From an uncultured Chloroflexia bacterium (GTDB lineage Bacteria > Chloroflexota > Limnocylindria > Limnocylindrales > CSP1-4), in assembly GCA_963734535.1 (NCBI GenBank), contig CAVTHS010000014.1, positions 64,001-128,000 on the forward strand: DNA of 64,000 nt, read 5' to 3'. Below the pieces are notes generated by a model. That model ran no database searches. It had not been told where the DNA came from and saw only the letters and a list, made by a program, of their open reading frames with translations. The number at the start of each line of letters is the position of its first letter. Positions within the stretch are counted from its first letter, which is position 1. A program made the translations under genes and the position numbers. Of this stretch, positions 5,744 to 8,404 are shown piece after piece.

Positions 5744-8404
5744 ATGGCCGACCTCATCTCCCGCCCAGCCGACCGCATCCCCGGCCCAGCGGACCTCGTC
5801 TCGACGACCCGACCCGAGCCGGTGGTCGACTCGCTGGCGGAGCGGCTCTTCCGCACGCAGTCGCCGCAGCGCCCGCAGTCCACGCCGGTCATCCGGCTCG
5901 AGGTCGACGGGCGCGCCGTCGAGGGCCGCGAGGGCCAGACGATCCTCGAGGTCTGCCGCGACAACGGGATCGAGGTCCCCACCCTGTGCTACGAGCCAAA
6001 GCTGCCGGGCTTCGGCGCCTGCCGCATGTGCGTGGTGGAGGTGGCGGGCGAGGAGCACCCGCCGATCTCGTGCTCGCGCCTGGCCGAGGCCGGGATGGTG
6101 GTCCAGACCCAGACAGAGGAGGTTCGCCGCCTGCGCCGGACCAACCTGGAGCTGATCTTCTCCGACCACAACGCGTACTGCCTGCCGCCCTGCCAGAACA
6201 AGTGCCCGAGCCACATCGACATCCCGGGGTTCCTCAAGGCGAACGCGGAGGGCGAGTTCCGCGAGTCGGCCCGGATCTTCAAGCGCACGATCCCGTTCCC
6301 CTCGATCCTGGGCCGGGTCTGCCCGGCGCCGTGCGAGGAGCACTGCCGGCGCGACGAGGTCGACGAGGCGATCGCGATCCGCGACAGCCACCGCTACGCG
6401 GGCGACCAGGTGATCCGCGCGATGCGCGAGCAGGACGTGGATCCGCCGCTCCCCTTCGAGCTGCAGCCGAAGTCCGGCAAGCGGGTGGCGGTGATCGGGT
6501 CCGGCCCGGCCGGCGCGTCCGCGGCCTACTACCTGCTGATCGCGGGCCACGACGTGACGATCTACGAGCGGGACGAGGCGCCCGGCGGCATGCTCCGTTA
6601 CGGCATCCCGGAGTACCGGCTCCCGAAGGAGAAGGTCCTCGATCCCGAGTACGAGAGCATCACGCGACTCGGCGGGCGCTTCGTCTGCAACCAGGCCCTT
6701 GGCCGCGACTTCAGCCTGGACGACCTCCAGAACCAGGGCTACGACGCCGTCATGGTGGCGATCGGCTGCTACGACACGAACAAGCTGGGGATCCCCGGCG
6801 AGGACGCCGACGGTGTCATCGACGGCCTGGAGTACCTCAAGATCGCCACGCTCGGCCTGACCTACCCGGGCCACGCCGGCACGCGGGTCGTGGTCATCGG
6901 CGGCGGCTTCACCTCGATGGACTGCTCGCGAACCTCGGTACGCCAGGGGGCGTCGGAGGTGACGCTCGTCTACCGCCGCGACATGAAGGACATGCCCGCC
7001 TCCGGCGAGGTCCACGAGGCCATCGAGGAAGGCGTCACGACGATCTTCCAGGCCGGCCCGACCCGCGTCATCGCGAACGAGGCGGGCAAGGTCACCGGTG
7101 TGGAGTTCATCCGGATGCAGCTGGGCGCCGCGGACGCCTCGGGCCGTCGTCGACCCGAGCCGGCCCCTGGCACCGAGTTCACGATCGAGTGCGACCGCGT
7201 CCTGCTCGCGATCGGGCAGGGCCCGGACCTGACCTGGATGGGTGGTGGCTCGGACGGCGTCGAGGCCACGAAGTACAAGCGCCTGCGGGCCGACGCGGTC
7301 ACCTTCCTGACCCCGCGGCCGGGCGTCTTCGGGACCGGCGACGTCCGCATGGGCGCCCAGACCGTCGTCCAGGCGATCGCCGACGGGCGCCGGGCCTCCT
7401 ACGCGGTGGACGCCTACCTGAAGGGAATGGACCTCGGCGAGATCCGGACCCGCCAGACGCTGGCGGAGCCACAGCCGGAGTTCCTTAGCATCGTCCCGTT
7501 CACGTCCGAGGTGAAAGCACCCCGCAACCGGCTGCGGACCATGCCTGCCGAGGAACGGCGCTCGAGCTACGTCGAGTACGAGATCCCGTACTCGCAGAGC
7601 GAGGCGGTGGCGGAGTCCACGCGCTGCCTGCAGTGCACCTGCGAGGCGATCGGCTTCTGCGACCTGCGCCGCCTGGGCATCGAGTACGGGACCACCCTCA
7701 AGACGCTGGAGCCGCAGAACAACGGCGGGGCCGGCTTCCGGAGCGTGACCGAGAACCGCTTCACCGGCTCCAACCACGACTACATCCGCGACGACAGCCA
7801 CGCCTTCATCCTCCGCGAGCCGTCGCGCTGCATCGACTGCGGCCGCTGCGCCAACGTCTGCGCCGAGGTCGTCGGGGCGGCCTGCTACGACTTCATGCGG
7901 ATCGGCTTCGACACCCTGGTGACCACGCCGCTCGACATGAGCCTCAACGACACGCCGTGCGTGTCGTGCGGGCGTTGCGCGGAGACGTGCCCCACCGGCG
8001 CGCTCATGCCGAAGCCGCGGATCCTCGAGAAGTACGACGTGGACGAGAGTCGCTGCATCCTGTGCGGCATCTGCGTCGACGCCTGCCCGTACGACGCGCT
8101 CCGCTGCGGCCCCGACTTCGAGCTGGCGCACGTGAGCCGCGAGGAGCCGATGATCGACCTCATCGCGATCGCGGCGGTCGATCGCGAGACGGAGATGACC
8201 TACGTTCGCCGCGAGCGCGACTGGCTGGAGCGGGCAGTCGCATCCGGCCGGGATGTCGGCGCCCGCCAGCTCCCGGTGCTCCCGGCCTCGCTCGCGGGCG
8301 GCGCGAACGGCAACGGCAGCGGTCGCGCGAGCGTCCCCGGCAACGGCCACAATGGGCACGGCCCGGCCGGCGGCGGCACCGCCGGGCACGCGCACAACCG
8401 GTAG
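5744..8404 (+). CDS. Multi-domain FAD/Fe-S oxidoreductase: NuoG-type 2Fe-2S + GltD/NfnB-like NADPH-FAD module + 2x[4Fe-4S] + C-terminal half of NuoI (886 aa)
   Basis: ATG 5744. Motifs in order: PTLC...GACRMCVVE...[63 protein letters not shown]...[54 protein letters not shown]...DFELA. Confidence 0.9.

Follow-up and report, generated by a model that had tools for sequence, protein, structure and literature searches.

We analyzed a stretch of 64,000 nucleotides (the window) from an uncultured Chloroflexia bacterium of the class Limnocylindria (assembly GCA_963734535.1, contig CAVTHS010000014.1, positions 64,001 to 128,000 of the forward strand). The gene under study (the target) lies at 5744..8404 on the plus strand, starts with an ATG at 5744 and has a stop codon that ends at 8404. 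It encodes an 886-residue fusion of the N-terminal part of NuoG, a GltD-like module, a ferredoxin-like domain and the C-terminal half of NuoI. The target belongs to a complex I operon whose order is nuoA-B-C-D-H-[NuoI-N::NuoE]-NuoF-[target::NuoI-C]-J-K-L-M-N, with all genes on the plus strand. The window opens within nuoB, whose 3' part (1..384) shows the CC...C...C pattern of N2 ligands in translation; nuoA and nuoB start just upstream of the window, where PF01058 and PF00507 match the upstream locus (L133). They are followed by nuoC (395..940; PF00329, 9.9e-40), nuoD (982..2169, start approximate; PF00346, 1.3e-83), nuoH (2180..3517; PF00146, 3.4e-103), a gene that joins the N-terminal half of NuoI through a linker to a NuoE-like part (3528..4363; first CxxCxxCxxxCP at residue 56, PF01257 at residues 125-213) and a nuoF of a variant lineage that comprises only the core of the protein (4367..5732; PF01512, SLBB, PF10589). 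Downstream of the target, the stretch 8431..14348 holds nuoJ, nuoK, nuoL (9295-11298), nuoM (11305-12855) and nuoN (to 14348), the starts of nuoJ, nuoK and nuoN being approximate. An identical gene order was found by tblastn in ten of ten relatives. All 14 core subunit functions of complex I are encoded by this operon, which is the only complex I of the genome: its NuoD is the sole complex-I-type NuoD, and NuoH, NuoJ and NuoK gave one match each. NuoA, B, C, D, H, J, K, L, M and N are as ordinary as those of the canonical enzymes of Thermus (2fug/4hea), E. coli (7awt) and M. smegmatis (8e9g), whereas the E-F-G genes are placed after nuoH here and not after nuoD.

The domain structure of the target was resolved with Pfam and alignments. 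Near the N-terminus there is a [2Fe-2S] domain of the N1b type (5888..6115; PF13510, Fer2_4 at residues 49-124 with 2.8e-20), with four invariant Cys within residues 80-110. Residues 131-147 match the first 17 of the 40 positions of NADH-G_4Fe-4S_3, and at 6161..6208 the His/Cys motif of NuoG (His142-x3-Cys146) is merged with the first Cys motif of the GltD N-terminal domain. The GltD-like module itself, with two [4Fe-4S] sites, spans 6179..7387 (PF14691 and PF07992, together with the alignment to StnC and NfnA; Fer4_20 at residues 146-224 with 2.8e-17, Pyr_redox_2 at residues 247-548 with 4.9e-30). Its GxGxxG motif for flavin adenine dinucleotide (FAD) at 252-257, the second Rossmann motif at 386-393 and YRR at 410-412 all fall in invariant columns. 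A CxxCxCx5C motif (7622..7666) then resumes the His/Cys region of NuoG, and is followed by a NuoG/hydrogenase-type ferredoxin-like domain (7808..8005; PF22117 and PF12838; Fer4_Nqo3 at residues 689-754, Fer4 dicluster at 732-787; complete Cys motifs at 695-706 and 739-750), the C-terminal half of NuoI (8018..8176; TIGR01971 and NuoI chains of the PDB; CxxCxxCxxxCP at 771-782) and, at 8177..8404, a NuoI-type C-terminal extension with a variable Gly/His-rich tail. All Cys and His ligands of the target, as well as His216, were invariant in the 12 aligned sequences from four families, and Y-R-R after the second Rossmann strand was invariant in ten of ten sequences across the phylum. The Gly/His-rich tail (8339-8401) differs in length between genera and is missing from families f2, f3 and f4.

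The original prediction, made from the letters of the sequence, had described a NuoG-like [2Fe-2S] domain and His/Cys motif interrupted by a full GltD module. The Pfam matches and motif positions bear this out, and every motif it named was located (SDHNAYC at 140-146, GSGPAG at 252-257, GGGFTSMD at 386-393, YRR at 410-412 and RCLQCTC...CDL at 627-641). It was also right that ferredoxin-type motifs follow the GltD module, but its count of two [4Fe-4S] clusters was too low, as there are three CxxCxxCxxxC motifs (695-706, 739-750 and 770-782), the third of which belongs to the NuoI half that the prediction had overlooked. In agreement with the claimed absence of a molybdopterin-like domain and an H-cluster, neither family occurred among the 25 Pfam families listed of the 29 found, and the NuoG model TIGR01973 matches over its positions 2-99 only; the target has no molybdopterin-like C-terminal domain of the kind found in NuoG. 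The statement that the module replaces NuoG has to be corrected: the Fe-S N-terminal part of NuoG is kept, and only the C-terminal domain is replaced.

In canonical complex I, NuoI is a single subunit; here it is encoded in two halves, each fused to another subunit. Of the 121 positions of the NuoI model TIGR01971, positions 1-64 match residues 12-76 of the protein encoded at 3528, and positions 71-116 match residues 759-804 of the target. NuoI chains of the PDB were matched in the same complementary way, with 8e9g_I (7-83) and 2fug_9 (7-70) on the former protein, where such chains align to residues 9-83, and 8qby_I (92-143 of 163) and 2fug_9 (73-125) on the target. Each half carries one CxxCxxCxxxCP motif, which was invariant in all 20 aligned sequences. 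No full-length NuoI above the cut-off was found in the source genome (G000) or in any of the four other Limnocylindria genomes tested (G007, G025, G028 and G085), all of which contain halves only. The genes of the input module (NuoE-like, NuoF-like and StnC/NfnA-like) thus sit between the two nuoI halves and are translationally fused to both. In a ferredoxin fold with two clusters, each cluster is bound by three Cys of one motif and the fourth Cys of the other. Because the clusters draw Cys from both motifs, we infer a NuoI domain shared across two chains, in which both NuoI clusters (N6a and N6b) would be held jointly by the two fusion proteins. Such shared clusters would fasten the input and quinone modules to each other and could take over the docking role of the absent C-terminal domain of NuoG. 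The earlier proposal that the target is linked to a complete membrane arm therefore holds, and more firmly than claimed, since the protein carries half of NuoI and the genome has no other NuoI.

The closest solved relatives of the target are soluble enzymes, and the window copies of the 3528 fusion gene and of nuoF contain one frame change each, which might point to a soluble Stn/Nfn-like transhydrogenase that simply lies inside the nuo operon, or to a decaying pseudogene cluster. We consider both very improbable. The soluble enzyme is already contradicted by the split NuoI, both halves of which are covalently part of the module, and the target system lacks the tetramerisation domain of StnC and all bifurcation domains. 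As to the frame changes, one-base insertions near 4161 and 5276 were the only in-gene indels over 14.3 kb, relative to a genome of 87% DNA identity, that were neither a multiple of three nor locally compensated, and both genes are in a single frame at these sites in all ten relatives. Logan contigs of run X1, which may be the source sample yet is a separate assembly, show 6 differing letters in 967 bases and 2 in 1030 when compared with the window. These contigs (99% alike) are one letter shorter at each of positions 4159 and 5272, as are contigs from relatives in runs X2 and X3. Single-base errors of the assembly account for the frameshifts of nuoE and nuoF, and the pseudogene reading was rejected on the grounds that the genes are intact in ten of ten relatives and in the Logan contigs. 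An open reading frame of 1345 codons (4367-8404) was likewise rejected as one gene: it is an artefact in which a high-GC open frame is joined via a one-base insertion, and nuoF stops at 5732 in its true frame. Metatranscriptome X16 contains contigs that are 88-98% alike to sections of nuoE and nuoF and to the beginning of the target; they were not counted as expression because they stem from relatives and DNA carry-over is possible.

Among solved structures, residues 49-781 of the target are colinear with 9bov_A (1.4e-162), NfnA (9n5u_A, 2.7e-141) and StnC (8oh5_C, 2e-140), so that the resemblance to StnC and NfnA noted earlier is confirmed by alignment. StnABC of Sporomusa ovata (8oh5/8oh9) and NfnABC/Nfn-Bfu (9bov, 9n5u) share the domain order over about 700 colinear residues at about 40% identity, and the partner genes here are NuoE-like and NuoF-like as in those enzymes. 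In the published account of StnC (PMC10482914), a [2Fe-2S] domain (1-101) and a GltD part (102-565) are followed by NuoG-type clusters and an FdhF-like domain (683-1172); it was shown experimentally that NADPH, the phosphorylated form of reduced nicotinamide adenine dinucleotide (NADH), reduces FAD and that electrons pass via the clusters to the flavin mononucleotide (FMN) of StnB. The FdhF/molybdopterin-like domain with clusters C1/C2 is described there as mediating tetramer formation. The target lacks this domain, and its NuoI half begins exactly at that point; the alignment to 9bov_A and 8oh5_C ends at residues 781-782, and the protein ends at 886. Another difference concerns Lys170 of StnC, a ligand of cluster C7 that the same source states to be strictly conserved (PMC10482914), in place of which the target has His216. 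Unlike StnAB, the system here is devoid of the N-terminal [2Fe-2S] and C-terminal 2x[4Fe-4S] of StnB and of the [2Fe-2S] cluster of StnA, and unlike the soluble three-gene units StnABC and NfnABC, it is encoded within a complete nuo operon.

Compared to canonical NuoG, the target keeps the N1b-type and ferredoxin-type parts but has a GltD module for FAD and NAD(P)H and no C-terminal domain. The model NF009454/PRK12814 ("putative NADPH-dependent glutamate synthase small subunit") covers residues 50-709, that is, the [2Fe-2S] domain, the GltD module and the resumed Cys motif; it has no NuoI half, and the target scores 563.2 bits, under the curated cut-off of 916. The GltD/NfnB/DPD proteins (2vdc_G, 4ylf_B, 5jca_L, 1h7x) contain the same two-cluster N-terminal domain with FAD/NADPH Rossmann domains (7e-80 to 7.5e-39). 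In GltD and NfnB the module is a separate subunit, whereas in the target it has been inserted into the interior of a protein of the NuoG type.

From these features, the target is most likely the NuoG equivalent of a rebuilt respiratory complex I that carries out NAD(P)H:quinone oxidoreduction with NADPH entering at the FAD, a reading to which we assign a probability of roughly 55%. NADPH would reduce the FAD of the GltD domain, and electrons would pass through the two GltD [4Fe-4S] clusters to the His/Cys cluster (the N5 equivalent), whose binding loop holds the GltD insertion, and from there through the split NuoI and N2 to quinone, while the ordinary membrane arm would pump protons. NADH could enter in parallel at the flavin site of NuoF via an N3-like cluster, N1b and N4. 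As in Stn, FMN and FAD would share a single chain, which could permit some exchange between NADPH and NADH. The bifurcating Stn/Hyd module has extra clusters, none of which is present here, and this makes bifurcation unlikely. The original prediction had proposed an NADPH:quinone proton-pumping complex I; the connection to complex I is upheld, but NADPH as the sole activity is not, given a NuoF that retains an FMN-type site.

Several points weigh against this proposal. The presence of PntB provides another link between NADH and NADPH in the cell. Furthermore, NuoF is atypical, its variant forms scoring only 255-345 bits with TIGR01959 (cut-off 558.65) versus 560-640 bits for canonical ones. 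The Asp of N-x-D-E, kept in all 27 canonical and Bfu-type NuoF sequences, is Tyr in 27 of 28 variants, and the second Cys of N3 is missing in 14 of 17 Limnocylindria NuoF sequences, those of this genus included. With such atypical motifs and scores, the NADH branch may be impaired. Finally, the preference for NADP(H) is inferred from the invariant YRR and from homology to the NADPH-binding StnC (PMC10482914).

Sequence is an uncertain guide to nucleotide preference, and the GltD site might use NADH instead, giving an enzyme with two NADH entry sites. We find this improbable, to a degree close to that given below for a reversed enzyme. A basic pair after the second Rossmann strand marks NADPH use, and the invariant Y-R-R falls on an identical motif of 9bov_A and 9n5u_A, whose family includes StnC, the structure of which is described as holding NADPH (PMC10482914).

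The main alternative holds that the enzyme accepts NADPH only, with NuoF and NuoE as decaying scaffolds, the FMN/NADH site non-catalytic and the FAD of the GltD domain as the sole entry. Besides the loss of the second N3 Cys and of the N-x-D-E Asp, this view is favored by the state of NuoE: none of 17 sequences has the second Cys pair of N1a, and several genera as well as family f3 have lost the thioredoxin-like domain. Comparisons between families always show NuoF to be less conserved than the target (about 56-59% versus 76% identity for f2, 45% versus 58% for f4 and 39% versus 46% for f3), and PntB, found in six of six genomes tested, could convert NADH to NADPH. On the other hand, the Gly-rich loop RGRGGAG, the following K-W and GEET are kept in nearly all 28 variant NuoF sequences, and genus g10, family f3 and all 11 variants of other Chloroflexota retain the four N3 Cys. 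In five of five genomes of only 1.0-1.4 Mb, the variant NuoF is the sole NuoF homolog and is kept at full length along with the target. Routing all NADH through PntAB would presumably waste proton-motive force as well. We therefore regard an NADPH-only enzyme as possible but doubtful. The same tentative standing is given to a broader form of the idea, in which the sole complex I of Limnocylindria would in practice be a proton-pumping NADPH:quinone oxidoreductase with NuoE and NuoF as a decaying scaffold, and the lineage of the input module would have joined the 11-subunit core separately from canonical NuoEFG, held by two Fe-S clusters shared between the fusion proteins.

Further details of the two partner proteins were obtained. 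For the NuoE-like part (residues 117-262 of an intact relative), the best solved matches were 9bov_C, StnA and NfnC, and the absence of N1a sets it apart from canonical complex I, as does the separate lineage of NuoF. In genera g4, g9 and g11 (L030, L031, L036 and L037), the fusion protein comprises only 186-225 residues, keeping the helical N-terminal domain of NuoE and lacking the thioredoxin-like domain. NuoF aligns solely to residues 114-526 of the 584 residues of StnB, and therefore lacks the N-terminal [2Fe-2S] and C-terminal 2x[4Fe-4S] of the bifurcating enzymes. Its N3 motif reads CGKTIPC here instead of CGKCxPC. Where this second N3 Cys is lost (window 5400-5700), C-D-H-E-R replaces C-G-x-G in the region of the fourth Cys, the His or Asp of which might take over as an N3 ligand. 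In an unrooted tree of 51 NuoF-type sequences, the 21 operon-linked variants fell on one side of a branch supported at 100/98, and the 16 canonical sequences formed a 100/100 clade. An origin of the variant NuoF inside the Stn/Nfn clade was not supported, the variants being grouped outside the sampled Bfu-type and canonical sequences; no donor can be named because the tree is unrooted.

For the proposed NAD(P)H:quinone oxidoreductase, the direction of electron flow was also considered. Complex I is reversible in principle, so quinol and proton-motive force might drive the reduction of NADP+ at the GltD site. The source genome contains several [NiFe]-hydrogenases, and module-carrying Ktedonobacteria are reported to oxidise atmospheric H2 and CO (bioRxiv 10.1101/457697). 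Against this, PntB is present, RuBisCO was not found in the source genome (90% complete), and streamlined genomes, presumably of heterotrophs, have no complex I other than this one. We judge the reversed direction unlikely. As RuBisCO was not found, CO2 fixation was dropped as a motive for reverse flow, and the suggestion in the original prediction that NADPH is made in this way finds little if any backing in the source genome.

Limnocylindria share this layout throughout, and it is also seen in Ktedonobacteria, cultured strains among them. Of 41 genomes from the genus and a sister family with genomes of 1.0-1.4 Mb, 39 contain an ortholog of the target, complete or in fragments; the two genomes without it are 75% and 67% complete. 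Matches to the NuoI-N::NuoE fusion were present in 137 of 151 genomes of the class (132 of 146 without five unpublished genomes). In family f3, nuoB, nuoD, the fusion gene, nuoF and the target form one cluster adjoined by a PF02636 gene, nuoH is located elsewhere, and NuoD occurs only once. A database search returned 7847 clusters at E <= 1e-50, many of which will be GltD paralogs; the best 120 of these were 79-95% identical and 856-909 residues long, and the homologs came from sources named Candidatus Limnocylindrales/Limnocylindria and Chloroflexota. Outside the class, a protein of about 810 residues that includes the NuoI half was found in 31 of 268 other Chloroflexota genomes sampled. There, the order nuoB-fusion-nuoF-target was seen in five of six loci examined and nuoB-C-D-H-fusion-F-target in one. 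Cultured carriers include Thermogemmatispora, Dictyobacter, Ktedonobacter robiniae (with two copies of the module), Thermosporothrix hazakensis, Tengunoibacter and Ktedonospora strains. Ktedonobacteria-type lineages also have a canonical NuoF (a tally that includes the unpublished genome G218). For example, genome G252 (loci at C9:85036-90427 and C1:589994-594475; related loci L047-L051) combines a canonical set for complex I, in which NuoF scores 619 bits and NuoI 136 bits, with a cluster of four genes, nuoB-[NuoI-N::NuoE]-nuoF-[target]. This four-gene cluster is devoid of nuoC and nuoD, and the variant tip of the Ktedonobacteria type may draw on the canonical operon for the remainder of the enzyme.

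A full-text literature search revealed no description of this architecture, although supplementary gene tables, which lay outside the search, could list these genes. Complex I is held to be NADH-specific with a fixed core of 14 subunits. The enzyme described here departs from that standard in that a core subunit, NuoI, is split with its halves fused to an input module of a different kind, and in that a second flavin site of the NADPH type appears wired into the cluster chain. Judging from its genes, this unusual complex I of soil and freshwater Chloroflexota can probably run its proton pump on NADPH. If NADPH feeds the pump, these abundant soil and lake bacteria would conserve energy directly from NADPH, and models of their redox balance and growth yield would change. 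To our knowledge, an NADPH-fed complex I has previously been reached only by engineering NuoF, to which this enzyme would be a natural counterpart. The architecture also bears on the recruitment of the N-module in the evolution of complex I. Cultured Ktedonobacteria carry the module, and the question is thus testable at the bench.

Additional observations were made in the surroundings of the operon and elsewhere in the genome. A gene of family PF02636, to which NDUFAF7/MidA, an assembly factor of eukaryotic complex I, belongs, adjoins the complex I genes in two families (L133:3898-5067, which is G000:C14:61898-63067 just upstream of nuoA, and L034:4389-5537). In the source genome this methyltransferase gene is divided between two frames; this may be one more assembly error, which would fit an error-prone assembly. 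Moreover, a cluster at G000:C6:258369-264724 contains NuoE-like, NuoF-like, GltD-like, NuoG-N/HoxU-like and [NiFe]-hydrogenase large-subunit genes and may encode a soluble hydrogenase that has a GltD-type NADPH module of its own. Another cluster of NuoF, HoxU and [NiFe] genes in the source genome was found at C2:25363-29235.

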